DNA of 60,368 bases from an uncultured archaeon (GTDB lineage Archaea > Asgardarchaeota > Hermodarchaeia > Hermodarchaeales > Hermodarchaeaceae), in NCBI GenBank assembly GCA_964347045.1, contig CAYFXC010000006.1, positions 40,047 through 100,414 on the forward strand. Reading direction: 5' to 3'. Below are positions 17,381 through 56,331 of the stretch, in pieces (the stretch's first letter is position 1; every line of letters begins with the position of its first letter). A model generated the notes under the pieces. The model made no database searches and was not told where the DNA came from. It was given only the letters and a program-made list of their open reading frames with translations. The position numbers and the translations under genes were made by a program.

Positions 17381-18528
17381 GTAACCGTTACATCATCAGT
17401 GACTTTAACATATTTGGTGGACTACACTGCGGAACTAGTGCGGTCCGAAAAATCTTTCTTTACAATGAGTTGCCCATCACCGAAGAGATGCTCTTTGACC
17501 TTGGAGGTGGAATTGGTTTCATTTACTGGTATGTCAAACAGATGCCCGCACCCATGGTTGGAGGACGTGGTGGAGGTCGCTATTTCATTGAAGACGCAGC
17601 TCGGCGAGCAGGAGTCACCCTCGAAGTGTTGCGAACAACAAGCAGTAAAAAGGGTCATGCTTGGCTAATGGAAAAGTTAGCACAAAATGAACCTGCGGTG
17701 ATATATGCGGATATGGCTTTCCTCCCCTACATGGGAGTAGGCGAAGATGCTCACTTTGGCCAACACGTCTTCGTCGTTTATGGCGTCGATGAGCAAGAGG
17801 ACGTGGTGTATATCTCGGACCGGGCTCTAAGAGAAATAACAGTAACAGTTGATGAATTGAAGAAGGCAAGAGCCTCAAAGTTTCCACCTTGGCCCCCACA
17901 GCATGCTATCTTTAATTTTCACCTCCCGAAGAAATTGGTCATAACCAAAGACATGGTAATAGAAGCAATGCAGCAAACCGTTGAAAGAATGCTGAACCCG
18001 TCGATCCGAAACATCGGATTGAAAGGAATCGAAAAATGGTCGAAGCTCATCGTCAAATGGCCAATCCTGTTTCCCGGCAAGAAGCTCTTGGATGCCCTCT
18101 ATCAAGGGTTCATCTACATCGAAACGGGAGGAACAGGAGGAAGTGCATTTCGACCCATGTTTGCCCGATACCTGCAAGAGATATCGGAACAATTCTCGAT
18201 GCCGGGATTAGATGCAGTGATTGCTAAGTATGAAGAGGCAGCACGTGTTTGGAGTGAGGTTGCTACTCTCTTGCTCCCCGATGAGTACCCGATGCTCAAG
18301 TGTGCCCGTGAACTCATAGTCGAACAAAATCGCATTAGCGAAGAACAGCCGCCTGGCGCAACCGGAAAACTACATGCAATGAATCAATAATTCGAATTAC
18401 AAATCGATGATATTCTAGCGGAGGTGGCAAAGGCACCGAAGTTTCTGCCCATCGTGCAACAATGGATAACCCAGCTCTATCGGGTGGAAAAAGAAGCGAT
18501 AGAACTACTCCAAATCGTGATTAACTAG
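17377..18528 (+). pseudogene. BtrH N-terminal / DUF4872 protein with in-frame TAA at 18388-18390
   Basis: HCGT, LGGGIGFIYW, DM.FLPY, FGQHVFVVYG, GTGG..FR..FARYL; after the TAA, 45 more in-frame codons end YRVEKEAIELL, matching the paralog C-terminus. Confidence 0.75.
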
Positions 18529-44239: not shown

Positions 44240-45571
44240 TCACTTCATTGCGGCTCGAAGAGCCTGTAGAGCCGTTTTTTCAGCCTTATAAACTTCATGG
44301 AATCGAACACTCAATTCTTCAAGAAGAGCCAACAGTTCACGATCTGAGAGCGATTGTTTCTCTATGAATTCTTTTCTATTTGTTTGAATCCGTCTACCTA
44401 ATACCTCAAGGGTTTTTAATGCTGAACTCCCATGAACCTTGAAGGTATTGTGCCATTCAAGTGCGGCTTGGCGAGCATCTAGCAATTCGGGAATATTATC
44501 ATGAAGCGCAGTTGTGCCAATTTCATCCCACATGATGCCAATATCAGAAAATTGTTGGGCAATCGTTCTAAGATCAGGTTTATTTATAATATTACTTGCC
44601 TCTTCGAGGAAATCGGCATAGGAGGAACGAAGAGCACCACCATCACTATTGTAGAATGCAATTTGAGCATGGAGACGACAAAGAGTATCAAATAGTTGCC
44701 ACGGTTCATTGAAGAGAGTGAGCCATCCACGCTTACTTTGGAAATCACCGATACTCTTTGCCATGGCTAACCAAGCCTCAACGCGTAGGTGTGCACCAGA
44801 TACTACAGCTTTGTCGTGAAGGAGACTTGATATACAGTCATTGATTCCAAGACGGATGGCTTTGTTTAAATCTGGTACATTTTTCGGAAATCCAATGGTG
44901 TAGGCAGCGTTTTTCCAACCTTTGATTATACTTCGCGAATCAGTTAGTTGCGGAATAGTAATGGTATGGGGTTGATTACTGAAATCAGTTAAGTAGACCT
45001 GATTATTGTCTTCATCAATTCCGTAAACAGTGGCTAGATGTCCTGAAATCCATGAATAGGGCAAGGAAAAGTAGGGGAGAAACGAGACAAATTCGTCGTA
45101 TAGTAAGGGCGGATAGAAGTCAGGATTTTGATGAAACCGGTCATTTACTTCTTGGCGTGAACTAAGGCTATGCCAAATTGAAAGTTGAGTTATCACAGGC
45201 TTCCCTGTTTGAAGTGATTCGCGGAGGAATTGGTCTGCGCGTTCCCGGCTCGTGGTTTCGTTCTTGGTGAGAGGAACAGCAATCCGAGTAGTTATTTTTC
45301 GTAAGAGTGCATCTTCGTTCTTTTCAAGGTAGTTCTTTACATGGTGATACCGTAGATAGAGCTGATATTTTCTTGGACGAGAGTCATCAATACCTTTGAA
45401 AGCCCAGGTGGCATACTCAGCACCTAATCCACCTCCAATACCCATAAGCAAAGCTTCGGTGTACGGTTCACCACTGTGAGGTGAGACAATGTTGTAAAAG
45501 TCTAGGATGCCCCTGACTGCACCCGTAACACGTTCAGTACACCCAAAATGGTGAAACCCGTCGATTAACAT
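44240..45571 (-). CDS. BtrH N-terminal / DUF4872 protein
   Basis: PHSGEPYTEALLMGIGGGLG, LPY, GHLATVYGID, GGALR..YADFL.EA. Confidence 0.82.
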   Translation of the reverse strand: MLIDGFHHFGCTERVTGAVRGILDFYNIVSPHSGEPYTEALLMGIGGGLGAEYATWAFKGIDDSRPRKYQLYLRYHHVKNYLEKNEDALLRKITTRIAVPLTKNETTSRERADQFLRESLQTGKPVITQLSIWHSLSSRQEVNDRFHQNPDFYPPLLYDEFVSFLPYFSLPYSWISGHLATVYGIDEDNNQVYLTDFSNQPHTITIPQLTDSRSIIKGWKNAAYTIGFPKNVPDLNKAIRLGINDCISSLLHDKAVVSGAHLRVEAWLAMAKSIGDFQSKRGWLTLFNEPWQLFDTLCRLHAQIAFYNSDGGALRSSYADFLEEASNIINKPDLRTIAQQFSDIGIMWDEIGTTALHDNIPELLDARQAALEWHNTFKVHGSSALKTLEVLGRRIQTNRKEFIEKQSLSDRELLALLEELSVRFHEVYKAEKTALQALRAAMK

Positions 45572-45717: not shown

Positions 45718-46164
45718 TTACTTGTTTTGTTTGTAAAGACTTTCAACAAAGGGTCCAAAACCCTTCTTTCGTGCTTCAAAGTCTTTTTTCTCTTCACCCT
45801 GATCTTTGCACCGTTCGGCTTTGAAGAACCATTCAAGTTTCTTCTTTGGATTATCAGGGAGGGTGTGCTTGACTTGGATTTTGTCTTTGTAGTTGTTGAA
45901 TTTATCGATATTAGCCCAAGGAATGAACCCTGCGAGTGCACCAGCAGCCATAGAAACAAAGCTGACTTCAAAGATTCCGGTTTTAGCGGCATGAAAGGCG
46001 ATACCTTGATCAGTAACCACAACATAGCCGGATTTTTTGTGAGCACCCATTCCACGCTTAAGTACTTCAGCACGGGTCGTATAAAGAACGCTCGCACTTT
46101 CTGGGATGAGTTGCTGAAATCCAGGATCTAGTTGATCTACTGGAATGTAGAGATGTTCGGACAT
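45718..46164 (-). CDS. Hypothetical protein, PH-like fold suspected
   Basis: GYVVVTDQGIAF and FIPWANI beta-strand pattern, C-terminal helix. Confidence 0.6.
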   Translation of the reverse strand: MSEHLYIPVDQLDPGFQQLIPESASVLYTTRAEVLKRGMGAHKKSGYVVVTDQGIAFHAAKTGIFEVSFVSMAAGALAGFIPWANIDKFNNYKDKIQVKHTLPDNPKKKLEWFFKAERCKDQGEEKKDFEARKKGFGPFVESLYKQNK

Positions 46165-46374
46165 ATTGATATCCCCATTCGCCACATTTCTATGATGGTA
46201 TTTAAGACGTCAGTCCTGTTTTAGAAAAGCTTCTAAGATATTGAGGTTCTCGTAATTAAATAAAAGTGCCATATTACTTTTAGCCTGGTCTGTGTTCGAT
46301 TTTATACGCCTAAAGAGATTGATTAGGCACTGGAAAATTCAAGTATTTAGTCATCCTATACAGGGGAGATAGTC

Positions 46375-49300
46375 ATGGATATCCGGGTCAAGGGTGCACA
46401 TGAACATAACCTCAAGGATATTGATGTCCAATTTCGTGATGGACTCACTGTAGTCACAGGTGTTTCTGGTTCTGGTAAAACATCCTTAGTCTTTGACACG
46501 GTATATCATGAAGCTCATCGACGGTTTTTGGATATCTTCTTGTATGGTCGCGGTGGACAACGCTTAGCTCCTGCAAAAGTAGAAACAATTACTGGGCTTG
46601 GCCCCACGATTGCTGTTGGACAAAATTTACTAAATCGAAACCCAGCATCAATCTTAGCAACGGCATCAGGGCTTCATCCGTTCTTTCGGCTACTTTATAC
46701 GAATTATGGAGTGCGCCATTGCTTGTATTGCGGTGAACCATTAGCTGTGTTGACAGAAGATGAAATCATTGAGCAATTATCAACACTAGCCAAAATGGAA
46801 CCTTTGGAAGTATTCGCACCTTTGGTCCAAGGCGTATATGGAAGCCACAAAACACTCTTAAATTTATTAAATAACCAGTTTGAACAAAGCCAAATCATCA
46901 TAGACAACAGAAAATGGGATGATAAAAAACTCGAAGCATCTCAACCTCATTCAATTGTAATAAAAATGGGCACCATTGATTCAACGAAATCGACTAAACA
47001 AGTGCGTGAGCTCATCAAAAGGGCGAACGCGTTAGGAGCCGGATCCATTCGAGCACATAGTAAAGAACGCAGTATCACGTTGGCAACTACACAAATTTGT
47101 AATGTATGCGGGAAAGGCTTCCGTGAATTACGGTCACCATATTTCAATCAATCGTGTCCATATTGTAAGGGAAAAGGATGTGATAGGTGTGACAATACCG
47201 GAATGCACCCTCAAGCTGCTTCCGTGCGGTGGGAGGAAATGCGACTCCCTGAACTCCTATCACTCTCTGTAGAAGAGGCATCATTATTATTCTCAAAAGT
47301 AACCCTACCATCTTCAGCCACACGATTAAGTTATGAAATTCAAAGGCGACTAAGTGCTTTAGAACGAGTCGGACTTGGATATCTTCATTTGAATCGCTCT
47401 GCGCCTACACTCTCTCGAGGAGAATCCCAACGGGTTCGATTAGCTATCTCTCTTTCGAGTAGATTAGAAGATATTTTACATGTGTTAGATGAACCGACGA
47501 TAGGACAACACCCAGCAGATGTTGCCCATTTTCTCCCAGCATTTCGAGATCTTGCAGGTCCAGTCATTTTCGTGGAGCACGATCGTGTTGCTGCTGCATC
47601 GGCAGATATGGCTATCGATTTGGGTCCTGGAGCGGGAAAAGATGGTGGAAAAGTAGTATTTGCTGGGTCACCGAAAGAACTCTGGAAACAGAAATCAGCT
47701 ACGGGTCGATATTTCAGTCTTCAGGATCGAGTTATGAGACCAGAATTGCGTCCACCACCTGTGTCATTTCTTAGCATCACTAAAGCCAATCAGCATAATC
47801 TCAAAAACATTGATGTTAAAATTCCGATCGGACGAATGACTGTAATCACTGGCGTCTCTGGCTCGGGTAAAAGCACTCTTGTCGAATATGTCCTGGTTCC
47901 TTCGCTAACTAAGAATGAAGCCATTGGATGTAAAAGCATTGATAGTCCAACAATCAAACCAATCTTGGTTGACCAGAGCCCCATTGGTCGGAATCCAAGG
48001 TCCAATCCGGCAACATATACGAAATTATCTGAAATCATTCGGGATTTGTTTGCAGAAACAACAGGATTATCAAAATCACATTTTTCCTTCAATCGCCCGG
48101 AAGGCGCCTGTCCCACTTGTAAGGGCATTGGGGCTAGCGAAATCAAAATGCAATATCTGCCTTCAATTTGGTTGCCCTGTTCGGATTGTGATGGACAACG
48201 TTTCAGTCCGGAAATTCTATCTGCTAAAGTGGATTTCAATGGTGAACAGCTGTCTATTGCTGATTTCTACGCTCTCCCGATTGCTGAAGTTGGAGAACGA
48301 CTCGAACAATCTGAATACATAACCTCTACTCGCCGCCAATCTGCACATCGAATGCTTAAAGCCCTAAACGATGTGGGACTCGGATATCTTGAGCTTGGAC
48401 AACCATCTCCAACCCTTTCAGGGGGAGAAGCTCAACGAGTGAAATTAACTAAATTCTTGGGTCGTAATAGATTGGCCAATCAGTTAATTGTCCTTGATGA
48501 ACCATCCACGGGTCTCCATCCTCAAGATCTTGATGGTTTGATTACTGTTTTAGACCGCTTAGTACGGCATGGCGCCACCATTCTTGTTGTTGAACATAAT
48601 ACAGATTTCATCCGAGCCGCTGACTGGATCATTGACTTAGGTCCAGGGGCTGGGCCAAAAGGTGGCAAAGTCCTCTTTGCTGGTCCACCAGAGGATCTTT
48701 TTGATGTAAAATCTTCCCTTACTAGTCAAGCCCTACAAGAAGAAAAGCGGGTTAAACCGCGTCCAATTTCGAAGACCGTGGTTGACATTGAACCGGTAAT
48801 ATCCATTCGAAACGCTCGAGCAAATAATCTGAAAGGTATAGATGTAGATATCCCAAAAGGCACACTTACTGTGATCACAGGTATATCTGGATCGGGAAAA
48901 TCGAGTCTTCTGCATGATGTGCTGCAAGCCGAAGCACGACGTCGGTATCTGGAAACCCTTTCAATGTATGAGCGGCAAGGACTCCGAGAAGGTCCAGAAG
49001 CCTTGGTGGATTCCATCACTGGATTAGGCGTCACCATTACAATAGCACCACACCGTGCTCACCTATGGAGCCACATCCCACAGTTCACTCGCCGTAACAG
49101 TGTCGGTGCACTAACCGAGATTAGTTTTCATCTAGCAAACCTGCTAGCCGCAATAGGAAATTGTGTATGCCTAGATTGCGGAACTATGATGAACCGCGAA
49201 GAAGAATGGTCCTGTCCAAAATGTCATACAACAGCACCAATTGCAAAACCTCAACACTTCTCTTCAACTCATTGGACCAGTTCGTGTGATAAATGCAGTG

Positions 49301-51300
49301 GCCTAGGTGTCTTGCATATCCCTGAACCGGAAAAACTCATCGTGAAACCGGATAAACCACTCTGTGCGGGGGCTATGTGGTCACCCGGCTATTGGCCTAA
49401 AACCTATCTATGTAAAGATCAACCGATCATCCCAGAGCTAGGAAAACAGTATGGATTTGATCCCTACAAAACACCATGGAAAAAAATGTCTAAGAGAGCA
49501 CAAGATGCTTTTCTGTATGGAGATGATAGAACCTATCAATTTACATATATCAGCAAATCAACAGGCAAGTTGAAAGGAAAGGAACGCCAAACGAAATGGA
49601 CTTGGCGAGGATTCTATCGAGAAGATAGCTGGATTTTTACCTGGGACATTCACGGGACTTACACCAAAGAAATTGTTTGCACCGAGTGTAATGGAGCAGG
49701 GCTACGCCCTGAATTCTTGGCAGTTACTCTTCAAGGGAAGAACATGTTTGAATTGAATGAGATGCCCCTCACTGAACTCGAAGATTTAGTTACAGGGCTT
49801 CCAGCCCCACCACCCGACATCCCAATGATTGATACCAGTATGCAAATTATTCGACGTCGGTTACGATTTCTACGACAGGTCGGAATCGGTTATCTTCATC
49901 TAAACCGTCCAACAGGAACGCTCTCAGCAGGTGAAGCCCAACGAATACAGCTTGCTAGCTTACTCGGAAGTAGATTGACTTCTTTAACGATTCTCGTTGA
50001 TGAGCCTTCACGGGGGATGCATCCCACAGAACTTGAAGCGCTTATTGAAGCACTTCAGGAACTACGTGAAGAGGGTAATACTGTTATTGTTGTGGAACAC
50101 GATCTTCTGTTCATTCGGGCTGCGGATCACGTCATTGACTTAGGTCCTCAGGCAGGGACCTTGGGTGGTGAGCTTGTTGCAGAAGGAAAGCCTACGGATA
50201 TCGTTAAAGCAAACACAATAACTGGGAAATGGTTGGAAAAACAAAGGAAGAAAGTGTCGTTGATGGAAGGGGGGCTAGATCAATGGATGGATTCTACAAA
50301 TCGACGCACACCCAAAGGATGGATTATCGTTAAAGGTGCACGTGCCAACAACTTGAAAGGAGAAGAGGTGCGAATTCCGCTAGTAAACCTAGTTGGGATT
50401 TGTGGCATATCCGGTTCAGGAAAAAGTACACTCCTTATTGACACTGTTGGACGAGCACTGGTCAAAAAACTACACTCCTCATCATTTGCCCGAGAACCCC
50501 TTGAGCCCGGACCATTTGATTCAATTACCAATAACCCGACACGGACCTTCATTGTAGATCAGTCAAGACGAGGAATTCAGAGCCCGGCAAGCTTTCTGAA
50601 TCTGTTCCGACCTATGATCAAACTCTTTCTAGATAGTGATGATGCACAAGCTTTAGGATTTGGAGAAAAAGAACTCACCCAAGGTTGCTCCGTCTGTAGG
50701 GGCCGCGGCTACTTGCGATTGGACATGGGATTTCTCCCCAATGAACTTGTGGAATGTGAAACATGTAGGGGAACGGGATATCGACCGGAAGCATGGGAAG
50801 TCAAGGTTCATGGTGTCGCTCTACCTGATATCAACCGAATGACACTCGATGAGATTCATAAACTCTTTCGAAATGAGCCCAGCATTACGACACCTCTTAG
50901 AATCGTGCGAGAGGTTGGATTAGGATATCTCGTTTGGCAACAACGAACCTATTCGCTTTCTGGTGGTGAAGTGCAACGGTTGAAAATTGCCAAAGAACTT
51001 CTAAAAAAGGCTAAGGAACCAACACTCTACATACTTGATGAACCCACTGTTGGACTCCACATGGAAGATGTAGCACGACTCATCTCAGTACTCAATAAGC
51101 TTGTAGATGCAGGACACACAGTTGTGATAGTCGAACACCATCCCCATATGCTAGCTTCGTGTGATTGGATTATCGAACTTGGACCGCGCGGAGGACCAGA
51201 GGGAGGAAAAGTAATCGCAACAGGCACACCGGAAGATATTGCTAAGAAGAACACGCCGACAGCACCATATCTTAGTGAGATTTTGGAGGTGAAATCATGA
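46375..51300 (+). CDS. uvrA: Double-length UvrA-family ABC ATPase (four NBDs)
   Basis: GA.E/ANNLK, four Walker A ([24 protein letters not shown] x2), LSxGE.QR x4, DEP x4, DQSPIGRNPRSNPATY, CxxC Zn sites. Confidence 0.9.
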   Translation: MDIRVKGAHEHNLKDIDVQFRDGLTVVTGVSGSGKTSLVFDTVYHEAHRRFLDIFLYGRGGQRLAPAKVETITGLGPTIAVGQNLLNRNPASILATASGLHPFFRLLYTNYGVRHCLYCGEPLAVLTEDEIIEQLSTLAKMEPLEVFAPLVQGVYGSHKTLLNLLNNQFEQSQIIIDNRKWDDKKLEASQPHSIVIKMGTIDSTKSTKQVRELIKRANALGAGSIRAHSKERSITLATTQICNVCGKGFRELRSPYFNQSCPYCKGKGCDRCDNTGMHPQAASVRWEEMRLPELLSLSVEEASLLFSKVTLPSSATRLSYEIQRRLSALERVGLGYLHLNRSAPTLSRGESQRVRLAISLSSRLEDILHVLDEPTIGQHPADVAHFLPAFRDLAGPVIFVEHDRVAAASADMAIDLGPGAGKDGGKVVFAGSPKELWKQKSATGRYFSLQDRVMRPELRPPPVSFLSITKANQHNLKNIDVKIPIGRMTVITGVSGSGKSTLVEYVLVPSLTKNEAIGCKSIDSPTIKPILVDQSPIGRNPRSNPATYTKLSEIIRDLFAETTGLSKSHFSFNRPEGACPTCKGIGASEIKMQYLPSIWLPCSDCDGQRFSPEILSAKVDFNGEQLSIADFYALPIAEVGERLEQSEYITSTRRQSAHRMLKALNDVGLGYLELGQPSPTLSGGEAQRVKLTKFLGRNRLANQLIVLDEPSTGLHPQDLDGLITVLDRLVRHGATILVVEHNTDFIRAADWIIDLGPGAGPKGGKVLFAGPPEDLFDVKSSLTSQALQEEKRVKPRPISKTVVDIEPVISIRNARANNLKGIDVDIPKGTLTVITGISGSGKSSLLHDVLQAEARRRYLETLSMYERQGLREGPEALVDSITGLGVTITIAPHRAHLWSHIPQFTRRNSVGALTEISFHLANLLAAIGNCVCLDCGTMMNREEEWSCPKCHTTAPIAKPQHFSSTHWTSSCDKCSGLGVLHIPEPEKLIVKPDKPLCAGAMWSPGYWPKTYLCKDQPIIPELGKQYGFDPYKTPWKKMSKRAQDAFLYGDDRTYQFTYISKSTGKLKGKERQTKWTWRGFYREDSWIFTWDIHGTYTKEIVCTECNGAGLRPEFLAVTLQGKNMFELNEMPLTELEDLVTGLPAPPPDIPMIDTSMQIIRRRLRFLRQVGIGYLHLNRPTGTLSAGEAQRIQLASLLGSRLTSLTILVDEPSRGMHPTELEALIEALQELREEGNTVIVVEHDLLFIRAADHVIDLGPQAGTLGGELVAEGKPTDIVKANTITGKWLEKQRKKVSLMEGGLDQWMDSTNRRTPKGWIIVKGARANNLKGEEVRIPLVNLVGICGISGSGKSTLLIDTVGRALVKKLHSSSFAREPLEPGPFDSITNNPTRTFIVDQSRRGIQSPASFLNLFRPMIKLFLDSDDAQALGFGEKELTQGCSVCRGRGYLRLDMGFLPNELVECETCRGTGYRPEAWEVKVHGVALPDINRMTLDEIHKLFRNEPSITTPLRIVREVGLGYLVWQQRTYSLSGGEVQRLKIAKELLKKAKEPTLYILDEPTVGLHMEDVARLISVLNKLVDAGHTVVIVEHHPHMLASCDWIIELGPRGGPEGGKVIATGTPEDIAKKNTPTAPYLSEILEVKS

Positions 51301-52340
51301 CCTGGGCGCCGTTACTTCTTGCAGATCCGTCACCAAGCCTTCGGTTACTTGTCTTACGAGACTTATTGAATCGCCCCGAATCTGATGAGGAAGTCCAAGA
51401 GCTTCGAAAACTCCAACCGAGTGACCCAATTGTAGAGAAATTCCTTGCACTTCAAGAGAAGGATGGCTCCTTCAGAAGTGGAGAAGGAGGAGGTGCAATT
51501 CTAGGGCGAATTCGCATGACCGCTCAAGCCCTCATGGGTTTAGGTTATTTCGGATTAGGCCCCAAGCACCCCGCGATTAGAAGAGGAGCTGAATTTCTTT
51601 TCGCGCAACAGCAAGCTGATGGGTCATTTCCAATGATAGCACAAGGAGCAGTATTGGATGGAGGACAAGCAGCAGATGTGAAGTACCATGCGATACCGGT
51701 TCAAACTGCCTTACCCCTCATAGGACTAGCGTGGGTAGGATATGCAACGGATTCACGAGCAGAATTAGCCTATGAATGGCTCCTTAACGAAGAACTCTCA
51801 GAGGGAGGTTGGCCTTCAGGTCGCCACAAGGACAAATACATTTTTGCGGCAGGATATCGCCGCCTCCCGCATTCCAAATTCGGCTGTCGCACCAACACCA
51901 CAGCAGCCGTCAGTGCATTGGCATTACATCCTACACGACGCACTAGTGAACCCGCACGACGTGGTCTGAAAAAACTACTCGCCCAAAAACAACGCCCAGC
52001 ACACACCCTGGGATTTGAGGTCGCACGGATTGTCGGCGCCGAACCCCCACGGGGCGGCTTCACCTATTTCAAACGCTATGATGTAGCACAAATACTTGAC
52101 CTAGCCTGGCGAATCGGAGCCAACATGGACGACCCCCGCATCGCTGACAACGTCAAATTTGTCCAAAAACTACAAGGCCCCTATGGACTCTGGGAATACC
52201 CACGATACCCCGAAGTCACCCGATGGATAACCTTCGATATCCTCCGATCCCTAACCCACCTAGACCAAAACACTAACTGGTTCAACACAGAACCCCCAAC
52301 CCCCTTCCAACCCTACCCCAAAAAACCACCACGGTTCTAA
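51297..52340 (+). CDS. Prenyltransferase/squalene-cyclase repeat (alpha/alpha toroid) protein
   Basis: QW-like repeats LQEKDGSF, QQADGSF, ELSEGGW, LQGPYGLW; ATGA overlap with uvrA-like gene. Confidence 0.75.
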   Translation: MTWAPLLLADPSPSLRLLVLRDLLNRPESDEEVQELRKLQPSDPIVEKFLALQEKDGSFRSGEGGGAILGRIRMTAQALMGLGYFGLGPKHPAIRRGAEFLFAQQQADGSFPMIAQGAVLDGGQAADVKYHAIPVQTALPLIGLAWVGYATDSRAELAYEWLLNEELSEGGWPSGRHKDKYIFAAGYRRLPHSKFGCRTNTTAAVSALALHPTRRTSEPARRGLKKLLAQKQRPAHTLGFEVARIVGAEPPRGGFTYFKRYDVAQILDLAWRIGANMDDPRIADNVKFVQKLQGPYGLWEYPRYPEVTRWITFDILRSLTHLDQNTNWFNTEPPTPFQPYPKKPPRF

Positions 52341-52410
52341 CCACGCCCCCACCAACCCCCTCAACACCCAAAGGGGGGTGGGGTCACACAGGGGGAGGGG
52401 GAAAAAAGCA
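52341..52410. other. C-rich/G-rich hairpin and G-quadruplex-like tract between convergent operons
   Basis: CCCCAC..CCCCCT / AGGGGG-GTGGGG pairing; G6-T-G4-N7-G5-A-G5 at 52373-52401. Confidence 0.6.
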
Positions 52411-52460: not shown

Positions 52461-53009
52461 TTATAGTTTTGATATAATATTATTAGCAAATAGTGCTGCA
52501 TTCTCTAAATCCTTGGAGTTTGGGTGCGTTCTAACTTCAGAAAGGTATTCCGCCCATTCATCATCGGATACTATGATTTCACGATGAATGAACGCTTCAA
52601 TTGGCGCTGATGGAGCCCCCATACAATGGAAATATCCAAGAAATCGTATTCTTTTTTCTTGACATTTTCTCTCAAAAGTAGGAACACATTTCCCAGCCCA
52701 TTGTGCGAATAATTCCTTTCGCCTTGCAGTATGATCAGGCGTAAAAGTGGCGTGGGTGAAGAATCCAGCTATTTTAAATTTTGGATGGTGAGGGAGGTTG
52801 TCTAAGAACCGAATAAATGGACGTGCAAGATCTGCATCATGGCAGCTTGACCCAAGAAATAATACATCATAAGAAATGAGCTCATCAGATGAAACATCTT
52901 GAATCTTACTAAGTTTCACTTCATTGTCCGCGGAAACCGCTTTATGAATTGCTTCAGCAATCTTTTGCGTGTTCCTAGTTTCGCTGTAATAGGCGATAAG
53001 AATTTTCAT
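52461..53009 (-). CDS. Flavodoxin domain protein
   Basis: YYSETRNTQKIAEAI, YD.LFLGS, F.C.G, HP...DL..A..FA. Confidence 0.85.
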   Translation of the reverse strand: MKILIAYYSETRNTQKIAEAIHKAVSADNEVKLSKIQDVSSDELISYDVLFLGSSCHDADLARPFIRFLDNLPHHPKFKIAGFFTHATFTPDHTARRKELFAQWAGKCVPTFERKCQEKRIRFLGYFHCMGAPSAPIEAFIHREIIVSDDEWAEYLSEVRTHPNSKDLENAALFANNIISKL

Positions 53010-53055
53010 GAAGTCAATATGAATTACAAGTTAATAAAATCAATGAAATCTGAGT

Positions 53056-53982
53056 CTATTCGTTTAGCCCACGATCCCAGTATGCCGCATTCACCCACTG
53101 GCTGATAAATTGATCAATATCTTTAGGATAGGTGTAATCAAGCTTTTCTGCTACCTCTTTTGCAATCCAACGAAACAGTTGCATTGTATTTGCCAGCGCT
53201 TGCCACACATCATCCTCATCGTAATGCGCAAACGCCCCTCTTAGATCTGCAATTATCCGGGGGTCAGCCCACCTCTCTAAGAACCTCCCTCGAAACCACG
53301 TGTCATGAGTCTGACCTTGATTTACTTGTGCATGCCACTCGATCATAGGTAGAAGACTCCGACTCTTCATAAAAGAGTCTAGACAGCTCTTTCCTTCCCA
53401 AAGTTCACCGCGGCGAAGTTTCTTGGCAGCCCAGACAGCATGGTACCAAAAATCATGAACTCTTTCAAGATATTCATGTTCTGTTGGAAAATCTGGTGGT
53501 GGAACCTCAATCGTTTTGAATTCTTTGAGAAAGGCATCCATAACACCGTCCTTGTCAACTAATATCCGGATTCCTCGACCAATAATATTGGCATTTTCCT
53601 TTACAAATTCGGGAGTAATACCCTGTTTCTTTGCTTCTAGAACAAAACGAAAAGGCTCAACAGCAAAATCCACGTCTAAACCATTATCAAACAATACACG
53701 ACGCTCATAGTTATCCCCTGATCCAACAGCGATGGGTTCAACAAAAGTAATTACTGGATTTCCAAACTGGCTGACCCACTCTCCAGAATCTAGGAGAGTT
53801 CGTGGTTTAGTCGAAAAGATTATGATATCGAGATCGGACCATCTATCAGCTGGAGTTTTCGTTCGGGCATAGGAACCCACAACATAGGCCAATCGAATGT
53901 GGTCTTGAGTTTTTGCCCATTTAATGAATTTCCTTTCGACACTTTTGTAGAATTTAATGATTTCAGATTTGTCTAACAGCAA
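53056..53982 (-). CDS. Aminoglycoside 6-adenylyltransferase (ANT(6)/AadK)-like nucleotidyltransferase
   Basis: GSYAR...DRWSDLD, VLF..G.DVD, LVDKD, FW......K.L.RGE, GRFLE.W. Confidence 0.85.
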   Translation of the reverse strand: MLLDKSEIIKFYKSVERKFIKWAKTQDHIRLAYVVGSYARTKTPADRWSDLDIIIFSTKPRTLLDSGEWVSQFGNPVITFVEPIAVGSGDNYERRVLFDNGLDVDFAVEPFRFVLEAKKQGITPEFVKENANIIGRGIRILVDKDGVMDAFLKEFKTIEVPPPDFPTEHEYLERVHDFWYHAVWAAKKLRRGELWEGKSCLDSFMKSRSLLPMIEWHAQVNQGQTHDTWFRGRFLERWADPRIIADLRGAFAHYDEDDVWQALANTMQLFRWIAKEVAEKLDYTYPKDIDQFISQWVNAAYWDRGLNE

Positions 53983-53992
53983 TTAACCACCC

Positions 53993-55039
53993 TTATAATC
54001 TTTCAAGAGCTTGTATGAGAAACTCTCCCTCTCGATTAAGCCATTGCTCAGCACCTTCACGAAACATTGGATGTGCAAACCAAGAATTCACCGCATATAG
54101 CATAGCAGTCGCATGCCAGGCACCAATAAATAGGTCCAAATACTTCCATTGGGATTTCGGCATCGGACGGATCTCCGTATATCCCTCTAATAGGGCCTTT
54201 AGTATTGGTTCGCGTGTCTCGATATCTTCGAGTTCAGCTACTGAAATAGCCAAATCATAAATCCAATAACCATAGGCGGAGTCGTCAAAATCAATGGGTC
54301 GCGTATCTCCTTGATACCAGAGAATATTAGTATCCAAGCATAAATCAGCATGAATCAAGCCATAAACATCTGACCCTTTACCTAAATCATTCATAACAAT
54401 ACGAACCTGATTAGTAACAAGATCGAGGGGTTCTCGATAATTTTTAGGTATTGCCTCCCAGAGTTTACTTGCGGGAAATTCGAATAGTCCACCATCACTG
54501 AAGAGTCCTTCCCAATCATAGTGAATCCGTGTGAAACCTTTTGGTGGTGTCCAATGAACAGCATGATTGTGTAATTGTGCTGCGATTCGACCAAGTATCT
54601 TATAATGATGTGGAAGAATTTCTTTAGGGGTTTTGCGTCCTTTTACCCAACGTAGAAGTGTTGCATTTTGAGGGGATGGTATTCCTGGGACATCAGTAGT
54701 GGTTACAAGCTCACCTTTGTTATTTTGAATAGGTTCAGGCACAATTAGGTTTGTATCTTGAAGGAGGGCTTGAAGCCAGAGTAATTCCGATCGAATAGCA
54801 TCAGTTGTTTGATATTTTGGTTGGTGTAAACGTAAGATGTAGTGATTTTCCCAAAATCGTCCATCCTCTGGTTCGCTTGGAGCACACCTAGAGGTGTCCA
54901 CTTGATAATGGGCGTTGCCGGTATAGTCAATGAATTTCAGCTTCGCGTTTGATAGATTATAGGCATCCAGAGCCGCTTGGGCTTGTTTCCTTAAACGCTG
55001 AATCCGACCTCGTGCTGTGAGTTCATTGAATGACTTCAT
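53993..55039 (-). CDS. APH/homoserine-kinase-II family phosphotransferase
   Basis: I.SEL.WL, GLIHADL...N, IDFDD..YG...YD. Confidence 0.9.
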   Translation of the reverse strand: MKSFNELTARGRIQRLRKQAQAALDAYNLSNAKLKFIDYTGNAHYQVDTSRCAPSEPEDGRFWENHYILRLHQPKYQTTDAIRSELLWLQALLQDTNLIVPEPIQNNKGELVTTTDVPGIPSPQNATLLRWVKGRKTPKEILPHHYKILGRIAAQLHNHAVHWTPPKGFTRIHYDWEGLFSDGGLFEFPASKLWEAIPKNYREPLDLVTNQVRIVMNDLGKGSDVYGLIHADLCLDTNILWYQGDTRPIDFDDSAYGYWIYDLAISVAELEDIETREPILKALLEGYTEIRPMPKSQWKYLDLFIGAWHATAMLYAVNSWFAHPMFREGAEQWLNREGEFLIQALERL

Positions 55040-56190
55040 TTTTCGATTTTCACCTCACAAGTTAGTTCGAAGAAATCAGCTAACCGGATTGCATCAAGAC
55101 TAACATCATCTAGTTGAGATTTGGAAAGAGGATTAAAGGGCTCGATTATGAGGTTGATTTTCTTGGTAGTGCGTTTCTGGTTCCAAGTCCCGATTACTTT
55201 GCCTTCTTGAAGAAGGACCGGGGCAATCCATGCAGCCTTCTTGAAAACCAAATTGTAGTGTGATTCGTCAACAATATGACTTTTGTCTTTATGTCCGAGA
55301 AGAAAGATATCAAAATTCGGTAATAGGCGAACTGGTCGTGGTTCAATCTGAGTTTCCAAGAGTTTGTTTAAATCGTCTTGGAGAATCAAGAGAGGTTTCC
55401 CATTTAGTCTGACTTCAGCTAGTTTATGCAGGTTTCTTTCCCAGATTGAATTGACTATGGTCATTTTAAGTCCTGCCCAGGTAGAGAAATCTTGGGGAGT
55501 AGCAGGACCATAGCTTTGAAGATAATTCATTAAAATCGTATCTTCTGCTGTTTCTTTTTCAATCTCTGGTTGAATAGGGAGCCATTGATTAGTCAATACT
55601 AGTGATGCTTTTCCATTCAAATAGGGACCAAAGCAGGCTTTCCCCTCATACGCGAGGAGTTTTGTTACAATATAGTATCCTGTATCTACCCAAGGACGAG
55701 CGTCATTTCCTATCTCTTTTGCGACATGATTTGCTACTTCATCCTTGGTGGCCGGTCCATCTGCAAGGACATCCTCAATTGCATTAAGAATTGCTTCGAA
55801 ATCATGTTGAGACGGATCAAATTTTGCTACTTCACCAAATTCTCGAATTCCACGTTTTTCGAGCCAGGTCTTATGTTGTGCTATTCGTGGTTCGATTATT
55901 GCCTTCAAATAAGCTACAAAGTCCTTGGTTGCGAGATAGTGGGCTGTGCCACGCATACACCAAGTGCGAAGGATTAATTTGGAGGTCCAAAGTGCGTTTC
56001 TAATATCTTCTGGTTTGAGATTGTCAATTCGTGCCCATAGCTGAAGATTAGCTGCTGCAGGCATTTGAGCTTGAATCCCACAGACTCTTGAAACCACTTG
56101 TTCGAGGTCGTTTGAAGAAGCTCTCTCAGTTAAGAAATGGCGATCCATGCGAAATCCATTGATTTGTTCTTGAGTAACTTCAGTTGCCAT
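55036..56190 (-). CDS. AlkZ/YcaQ (HTH_42) family DNA glycosylase, QxQ type
   Basis: GIQAQ, RTWCMRGTAH, YL..YGPAT..DF..WAGL, LLP.FD.FLLG, G.V.GTW. Confidence 0.9.
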   Translation of the reverse strand: MATEVTQEQINGFRMDRHFLTERASSNDLEQVVSRVCGIQAQMPAAANLQLWARIDNLKPEDIRNALWTSKLILRTWCMRGTAHYLATKDFVAYLKAIIEPRIAQHKTWLEKRGIREFGEVAKFDPSQHDFEAILNAIEDVLADGPATKDEVANHVAKEIGNDARPWVDTGYYIVTKLLAYEGKACFGPYLNGKASLVLTNQWLPIQPEIEKETAEDTILMNYLQSYGPATPQDFSTWAGLKMTIVNSIWERNLHKLAEVRLNGKPLLILQDDLNKLLETQIEPRPVRLLPNFDIFLLGHKDKSHIVDESHYNLVFKKAAWIAPVLLQEGKVIGTWNQKRTTKKINLIIEPFNPLSKSQLDDVSLDAIRLADFFELTCEVKIEK

Positions 56191-56331
56191 CCTGTGCACC
56201 TAGAGAAAAAGCAATGAGGGCTAGAATCTGTATTACTTATTGATAGCCTTTATGTCATGAAGAAGTCAAGAATGAAGATTGGATAAACATTTCAAGATAC
56301 CAATACATAAGATAGGATAACGTGAGCCAAC

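Follow-up and report, generated by a model that had tools for sequence, protein, structure and literature searches.

UvrA is among the best-studied sensors of DNA damage, and no protein clients of it other than UvrB and Mfd are known to us. The class I protein (TIGR00630/NF001503; structures 3uwx, 2r6f and 3zqj) is a single unit of ~940 amino acids (aa) that carries both a docking domain and an insertion domain alongside two ATP-binding cassette (ABC) modules, with their Zn modules and ATPase motifs. Alkyltransferase-like (ATL) proteins, which present lesions to UvrA, provide a case of a small accessory protein that acts with UvrA on specific adducts; they feed canonical UvrABC, are not translationally coupled to uvrA and have a fold unrelated to that of the partner described below. 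The class II (IIa) proteins DrrC, Ecm16 and MtrX are paralogues that exist beside a canonical UvrA and act in an ATP-dependent manner, free of UvrB and UvrC (PMC9328131). Here we describe a pair of genes from the 89%-complete genome of an uncultured Asgard archaeon (Hermodarchaeaceae; contig CAYFXC010000006.1), which lies at 46375-52340 on the + strand of the 60,368-nt stretch of DNA that was analysed (the window) and which joins a double UvrA of an asymmetric kind to a toroid protein.

Each half of the double UvrA has the class I layout of two ABC modules, Zn modules and ATPase motifs; the docking domain in half 1 has the same fold as that of class I (template modelling (TM) score 0.83 to 3uwx_A) and half 2 has the insertion domain. 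However, where class I UvrA is one unit with both domains, the protein here is a 1641-aa fusion whose halves have undergone complementary losses, it is unlinked to uvrB and uvrC and it is coupled to the toroid gene instead. Half 2 taken alone has the layout of class II, with the docking domain absent and the insertion domain kept, but class II proteins, at ~750-850 aa, form homodimers of a single unit, lack both a docking domain and a dedicated partner and are found in actinomycete biosynthetic clusters, whereas the double UvrA has a docking fold in half 1 and an obligatory toroid, and no biosynthetic cluster was seen with it. The chlamydial-type long UvrA (NF001885, ~1800 aa) is also a fused duplication, yet the double UvrA scores 928.3 bits against that model where the cut-off is 3054. 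Literature searches found no paper on a pairing of UvrA with a toroid or on an asymmetric double UvrA, and nothing relevant on double or class III UvrA, which agrees with the earlier note on this DNA (made from the sequence alone) in its claim that the pairing was uncharacterised. The toroid is an unprecedented partner on a known sensor family, and we know of no case in which its fold has been linked to DNA metabolism.

That the two genes form a dedicated system, as the earlier note had proposed, is borne out by their conservation. In a sample of 201 Asgard genomes, from which 35 loci were fetched, five families contain orthologues of the partner, and at 34 of the 35 loci the gene immediately upstream, in the same orientation, encodes a double UvrA, the remaining locus being cut by a contig end. 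Searching the 201 genomes with UvrA as the query returned the same set, the few genomes with UvrA only being contig-end fragments. A scan of one genome per prokaryotic species gave 209 relatives of the partner, the best 80 loci of which were examined; the double UvrA is directly upstream in 77 of these best 80, and of the other three two abut a contig end and the third is a truncated remnant. In several of the best 80 the UvrA frame is split by frameshifts or decay. These loci span at least seven phyla and include Hermod-, Thor-, Heimdall- and Promethearchaeota, Bathyarchaeota and Chloroflexota, as well as Desulfobacterota (Desulfobacterales/Desulfatiglans), Acidobacteriota, Zixibacteria and Patescibacteria. 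When the 813 open reading frames (ORFs) from the 80 loci were clustered two clusters were widely common, UvrA and the toroid, with the next found in 10 loci, and no third gene is constant with the pair among the 80. Neighbourhood co-occurrence across genomes had been named among the checks of the proposal, with a lack of conservation among the grounds for refuting it, and both archaea and bacteria are found to conserve the pairing.

The junction of the two genes is as regular as their adjacency. The double UvrA gene (46375-51300, +; 1641 aa, defined by its ORF and translation, its match to TIGR00630 and the alignment of both halves) is followed by the toroid gene (51297-52340, +; 347 aa, defined by its ORF, its AlphaFold2 (AF2) model and structural searches), and the junction reads ...GGAGGTGAaatcATGAcc, with the partner ATG at 51297-51299 and the UvrA TGA at 51298-51300. 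This ATGA stop/start overlap (51297-51300, +), which points to translational coupling, is preceded by a Shine-Dalgarno-like GGAGGTGA in the 3' end of the UvrA gene (51285-51292, +), 7 nt before the partner ATG. Both the overlap and the ribosome binding site inside uvrA had been called previously, and these and every other sequence feature listed at that time are present where they were placed. Amongst 62 non-redundant orthologous pairs the UvrA stop shows a 4-nt overlap with a valid start (ATG, GTG or TTG) in 58, and GGAGG occurs no more than 16 nt upstream of the partner start in 48, so that the layout of the junction is far beyond chance. The pairwise identities of UvrA and toroid are correlated, with r = 0.94; domain-wise mirror-tree correlations between the partner and sub-domains of UvrA gave r of 0.74-0.90 and did not discriminate between the sub-domains.

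In the UvrA tree the genus of the window nests among Anaerolineales, Desulfobacterales, Acidobacteriota and Bathyarchaeota with 100% support and stands apart from other Asgard clades, therefore the cassette has crossed boundaries of both phylum and domain as a unit. The pair is a conserved, self-contained and horizontally mobile two-gene module. Four metagenomic clusters have UvrA and toroid in one frame, with a clean in-frame join in P0125 and a join by deletion in P0124. Separately, one locus (L028; G154:C4:232644-249678) has its double UvrA in pieces and an in-frame TGA in the partner, where both genes seem to be decaying together. In the window itself GC content is 0.45-0.48 over 48001-52000, the 3' half of the UvrA gene plus the partner, against ~0.40-0.44 in most of the window, which is consistent with a foreign origin of the cassette.

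The larger protein of the pair is a UvrA pseudo-dimer in one chain, which has one docking site, one DNA clamp and four ATPase sites. It scores 1386 bits against TIGR00630 when summed over both units; its separate stretches, as scored when the genome was searched, reach 548.7, 503.9, 152.7 and 101.7 bits where the cut-off is 729.8, so that each unit falls below it. When both halves were aligned to the canonical UvrA of the same genome all four sets of Walker A, signature, Walker B and H-loop were found to be intact and Zn modules were also present, and these ATPase motifs are invariant in 62 non-redundant orthologues. The pseudo-dimeric character with its single docking site and single clamp follows from the complementary losses in the halves: half 1 (aa 1-~795) has kept the UvrB-binding region and has had the insertion domain cleanly deleted, and half 2 (aa ~813-1641) has kept the insertion domain and has had the docking domain deleted. 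Pfam concurs, with UvrA_inter at aa 127-228 and UvrA_DNA-bind (PF17755) at aa 985-1064.

The UvrB/Mfd-type docking domain, present in half 1 only (aa 112-240; 46708-47094, +), was recognised from a PF17760 match of 23.8 bits, from AF2 and from Foldseek. Modelled alone with 34 orthologues it gave a predicted local distance difference test (pLDDT) of 92.5, and the top Foldseek matches of the model are 3uwx_A (the UvrA-UvrB complex), 3fpn_A and 4dfc_B (a UvrA/Mfd complex). Across the 62 orthologues it is never deleted and is free of gaps, with 14 of 120 positions at least 95% conserved. The insertion domain, which clamps DNA and is present in half 2 only (aa 976-1105; 49300-49689, +; from PF17755 and the alignment of the halves), has 29 of 130 positions conserved at that level. 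Between the units lies a variable linker (aa 796-812; 48760-48810, +), placed by conservation and by its position in the alignment, which has the lowest conservation in the protein, with a mean top-residue frequency of 0.36.

Another Asgard family has a double UvrA of its own, of ~1920 aa (L138:6786-12545, L139:6499-12249, L140:6454-12216 (-) and L141:4865-10621 (-)). This is likewise a single-chain duplication, but it consists of two near full-length units and the toroid gene is absent within 6-8 kb of it. Given this separate form, it appears that UvrA has been fused more than once and that the partner goes only with the lopsided type of 1640 aa.

The partner is predicted by AF2 to be a confident (alpha/alpha)6 toroid (pLDDT 85.3, predicted TM score 0.88). 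It aligns to squalene-hopene cyclase with a VIA-align Z of 15.4 and to complement thioester domains with Z of 13.6-14.6, and by Foldseek (E 5e-5) its structural neighbours are generic toroids, class II terpene cyclases included; the Foldseek and VIA searches gave generic toroid matches alone and no functional assignment. The Pfam model SQHop_cyclase_C (PF13243) matches with 34.7 bits against a cut-off of 26.1, and QW-like repeats (Q..DG.F/W), which match repeats of 2sqc, are confined to aa 48-176. D-x-D-D is absent from the 347-aa sequence. This supports what had been said of the partner in advance, that it resembles prenyltransferases and cyclases and has QW-like repeats but no DxDD. The PF00432 prenyltransferase model reaches 16.1 bits, below its gathering cut-off of 26.5, and TIGR01507 reaches 21.5 bits against a cut-off of 431.1, the partner being a single barrel, and no membrane-associated features were seen in it (maximum hydropathy 1.35). 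Source annotations call it a prenyltransferase/squalene oxidase repeat protein or hypothetical, and NCBIfam and the ESM Atlas supply generic cyclase-repeat labels only.

The fold and the QW-like repeats are therefore held in common with squalene-hopene cyclase, the class II terpene cyclases and the prenyltransferase beta subunit (PF13243, PF13249, PF00432), but squalene-hopene cyclase is a two-domain enzyme of ~630 aa with DxDD, whereas the partner has one barrel, a signature of its own and a basic tail. The family is compact, as a search of 1.84 billion representatives gave 65 clusters at E <= 1e-30, beyond which the matches are to generic cyclase repeats. Its most conserved motif is GYRRLxHSKxGCRTNTT (aa 186-202, here GYRRLPHSKFGCRTNTT), and within this the signature GYRRLPHSKFGCRTNT (aa 186-201; 51852-51899, +) forms, on the evidence of conservation and AF2 secondary structure, a basic loop or hairpin, after which an invariant Cys opens a helix; G186, Y187, R188, S193, G196, C197, R198 and T201 are invariant. 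The protein ends in a basic tail, ...EPRTPFQxYPKKxxR[FY] (52281-52337, +), that is conserved across phyla and is modelled with low confidence (pLDDT 57-63).

Two chemical roles suggested by the fold were considered and set aside. The thioester (TED) domains of complement and alpha-2-macroglobulin are similar in fold, but the partner has no CxEQ, its Cys lies mid-sequence and the only invariant Cys is that in GCRTN, and a complement-like thioester was dropped. A Zn site like that of protein prenyltransferases was also considered, the spacing of Asp, Cys and His not fitting.

Toroid paralogues of the partner keep C197, D152, R154, W172, D262, D279, R281, W299 and W310, whilst the GYRRLxHS segment and the basic tail are missing from them. 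From this pattern of residues it may be proposed that those held in common make up a ligand or active-site pocket, and that the ortholog-specific GYRRLxHS and basic tail would serve to connect the toroid with the double UvrA or with DNA. Some of these paralogues adjoin an aminotransferase, away from any UvrA. In one Asgard genus (L135:4793-11831, also L128 and L130) there is a paralogue operon that provides a second, separate juxtaposition of toroid and UvrA, with the order BtrH_N/DUF4872, toroid paralogue, DUF3795, BtrH_N/DUF4872, S-adenosylmethionine (SAM) methyltransferase and class II UvrA (834 aa); the toroid in it is ~25% identical to the partner. This paralogue in a class II UvrA operon, the asymmetry of the UvrA and the horizontal movement of the pair all go beyond what the earlier note had described.

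How the pair stands to excision repair differs between genomes. The genome of the window has a canonical uvrB-uvrA-uvrC operon on another contig, so that the pair is there an addition and not a replacement. In five pair-bearing Bathyarchaeota genomes (G202 and G205-G208), one of which (G202) is a closed 1.5-Mb chromosome (CP070765.1), neither uvrB nor uvrC was found at E <= 1e-10, and independence of the pair from UvrB is supported by these genomes.

The reading that we prefer, tentatively and at somewhat less than an even chance, is that the pair is a DNA-protection module independent of UvrBC, similar to class II UvrA but with a dedicated effector. The UvrA unit would scan duplex DNA and recognise distortion in an ATP-dependent manner, as UvrA of either class does, and the double protein would work 1:1 with the toroid in place of loading UvrB. 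The conserved pocket of Cys, Asp, Arg and Trp in the toroid might then bind or transform a DNA-bound genotoxic compound or a bulky adduct, with the basic hairpin and the C-terminal tail making the proposed connection to UvrA or DNA. In function such a module would be closest to the class II resistance proteins DrrC and Ecm16, plus an effector. The class IIa protein Ecm16 confers echinomycin resistance for which its ATPase is needed and UvrA, UvrB, UvrC and UvrD are not (PMC9328131), and uvrA-like genes serve as markers of gene clusters for DNA intercalators (PMC10413001).

A more specific form of this proposal, which we consider unlikely as it stands, is that the toroid is a new output module of UvrA. 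It would dock on the sole UvrB-type domain, and its invariant helix-capping Cys, set in the Cys/Asp/Arg/Trp pocket, would capture or remove an adduct or a DNA-bound genotoxin; this would amount to a third branch beside excision by UvrBC and drug displacement by class II UvrA, passed as a resistance cassette among archaea and bacteria of anaerobic sediments.

What makes the pair of wider interest is that it presents a natural single-chain, asymmetric UvrA "dimer" with one docking domain, which persists even in genomes that yielded neither UvrB nor UvrC. Should the toroid be a client of UvrA, it would represent a new effector branch of UvrA sensing, and the pair would be a natural model for the asymmetric UvrA states that are now seen in structural work. 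It would also imply that unknown genotoxic compounds or adducts matter in the anoxic sediments in which the cassette passes between Asgard archaea, Bathyarchaeota and Chloroflexota. As only two clonable genes are involved the question is directly testable.

A number of observations weigh against the preferred reading of a protection module with the toroid as its effector. That the toroid docks on the UvrB-type domain is something we infer, no structured part of the double UvrA evolves faster than the candidate docking domain, and the known ligands of such a domain, UvrB domain 2 and Mfd D2, are not toroids. The four fused forms are single-member clusters, and at least one of them, P0123, looks like a frameshift artefact. 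Furthermore uvrB is present in 154 of the 201 Asgard genomes, and since it is there in most of them the pair may cooperate with UvrB in Asgard archaea. Finally the pair was not seen to adjoin any biosynthetic gene cluster, and in a census at 40 loci no family is dominant among the 149 immediate neighbours, none having more than 10 members; the resistance-type genes in it are lineage-specific, and the counts are raw, taken without a control set, and imply no enrichment.

The alternative that survives best, although we would still call it improbable, is a specialised pathway of excision or lesion verification in which the toroid substitutes for UvrB: it would dock on the UvrB-type domain and verify the lesion with its basic hairpin, and then either recruit a nuclease or glycosylase or process the lesion itself through the invariant Cys. 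The retention of exactly one docking domain with one co-translated partner is what such a pathway would look like, the pair persists where no uvrB or uvrC was found, the Arg-rich hairpin with a Cys at a helix start recalls DNA-probing elements, and AlkZ-like and AlkD-like glycosylase genes adjoin the pair in some lineages. Yet no helicase, nuclease or known glycosylase motif is present in the toroid, its fold is without precedent in DNA repair and no nuclease is conserved beside the pair. The paralogues also speak against it, as they have the same pocket residues away from UvrA, beside an aminotransferase, which suits a site for a small molecule more than one for DNA.

The toroid might instead regulate the double UvrA, for example as a brake on its ATPase or on its binding to DNA, or act as its chaperone or in its assembly, and have no chemistry of its own; the strict 1:1 coupling and the co-evolution favour this, as do the rare fusions, and the disordered basic tail could serve as a tether. 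We think this a little less probable again than a substitute for UvrB, as many of the invariant polar and aromatic residues are common to paralogues that are not linked to UvrA, which is typical of a ligand or active site and not of an interface alone. Defence against phages or plasmids, with the UvrA-like ABC ATPase sensing foreign DNA and the toroid as effector, is the weakest of the repair, regulatory and defence alternatives and seems to us quite improbable. Whilst the module is small, self-contained, patchy in distribution and horizontally transferred, and the ATPase matches ABC-type PADLOC models such as mad3, those matches are of the generic ABC-ATPase kind and the partner matches none of the 5027 models in PADLOC-DB 2.0; moreover the genes around the pair are not defence genes, no toxic or nuclease domain is recognisable in the partner, and searches of PLSDB plasmids, INPHARED phages and IMG/VR contigs gave no relative. 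That two unrelated genes adjoin by chance or only locally is hardly credible, being refuted by adjacency, overlap and co-divergence that are conserved across two domains of life.

The genes that surround the pair vary from lineage to lineage, and these lineage-specific neighbours fit a reading in terms of xenobiotics or adducts. The earlier note had guessed that the partner may replace UvrB or may bind or modify a DNA-bound drug, and of such roles it is the xenobiotic or adduct one that the neighbours favour. In Promethearchaeia there is a row of five genes on one strand (L023:2-10402, L117, L121 and L105), which runs SAM methyltransferase, class II UvrA (833 aa), double UvrA, toroid and a 137-aa glyoxalase/bleomycin-resistance VOC protein, and its class II UvrA is 75-82% identical to that of the paralogue operon described above, which has the same methyltransferase as well. 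Thor-like loci have the order PadR, BtrH_N/DUF4872, double UvrA and toroid. The census of neighbours includes three class II UvrAs, three methyltransferases, two AlkD-type DNA_alkylation proteins, two PadR and some exporters.

In the genus of the window a convergent operon, which lies at 52461-56199 (-) in the window, encodes a flavodoxin, a streptomycin-type adenylyltransferase (PF04439, ANT(6)-type), an APH-family kinase and an AlkZ-like DNA glycosylase (PF06224), and the AlkZ-like gene is a conserved neighbour of the pair in loci of the same genus. Between the convergent operons there is a C-rich/G-rich inverted repeat (52347-52383, no strand assigned), C5ACC...G6TG4, with a 12-pair stem in the minimum free energy fold. 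A shared hairpin at which the genes of the pair end had been proposed here, and whilst the stem exists the region folds no better than shuffled sequences (z = -0.88), so that a function for it is unsupported; as hairpin terminators are also not the archaeal norm it was given no weight.

Two BtrH_N/DUF4872 genes are found in the window, at 44240-45571 (-), just upstream of the double UvrA, a position that such a gene holds in the genus of the window, and at 17386-18522 (+). Between the first of these and the double UvrA lies an ORF of 155 aa (45718-46185, -) with no Pfam match, which is probably a real gene given that it is 81-92% identical across all loci of the same genus.

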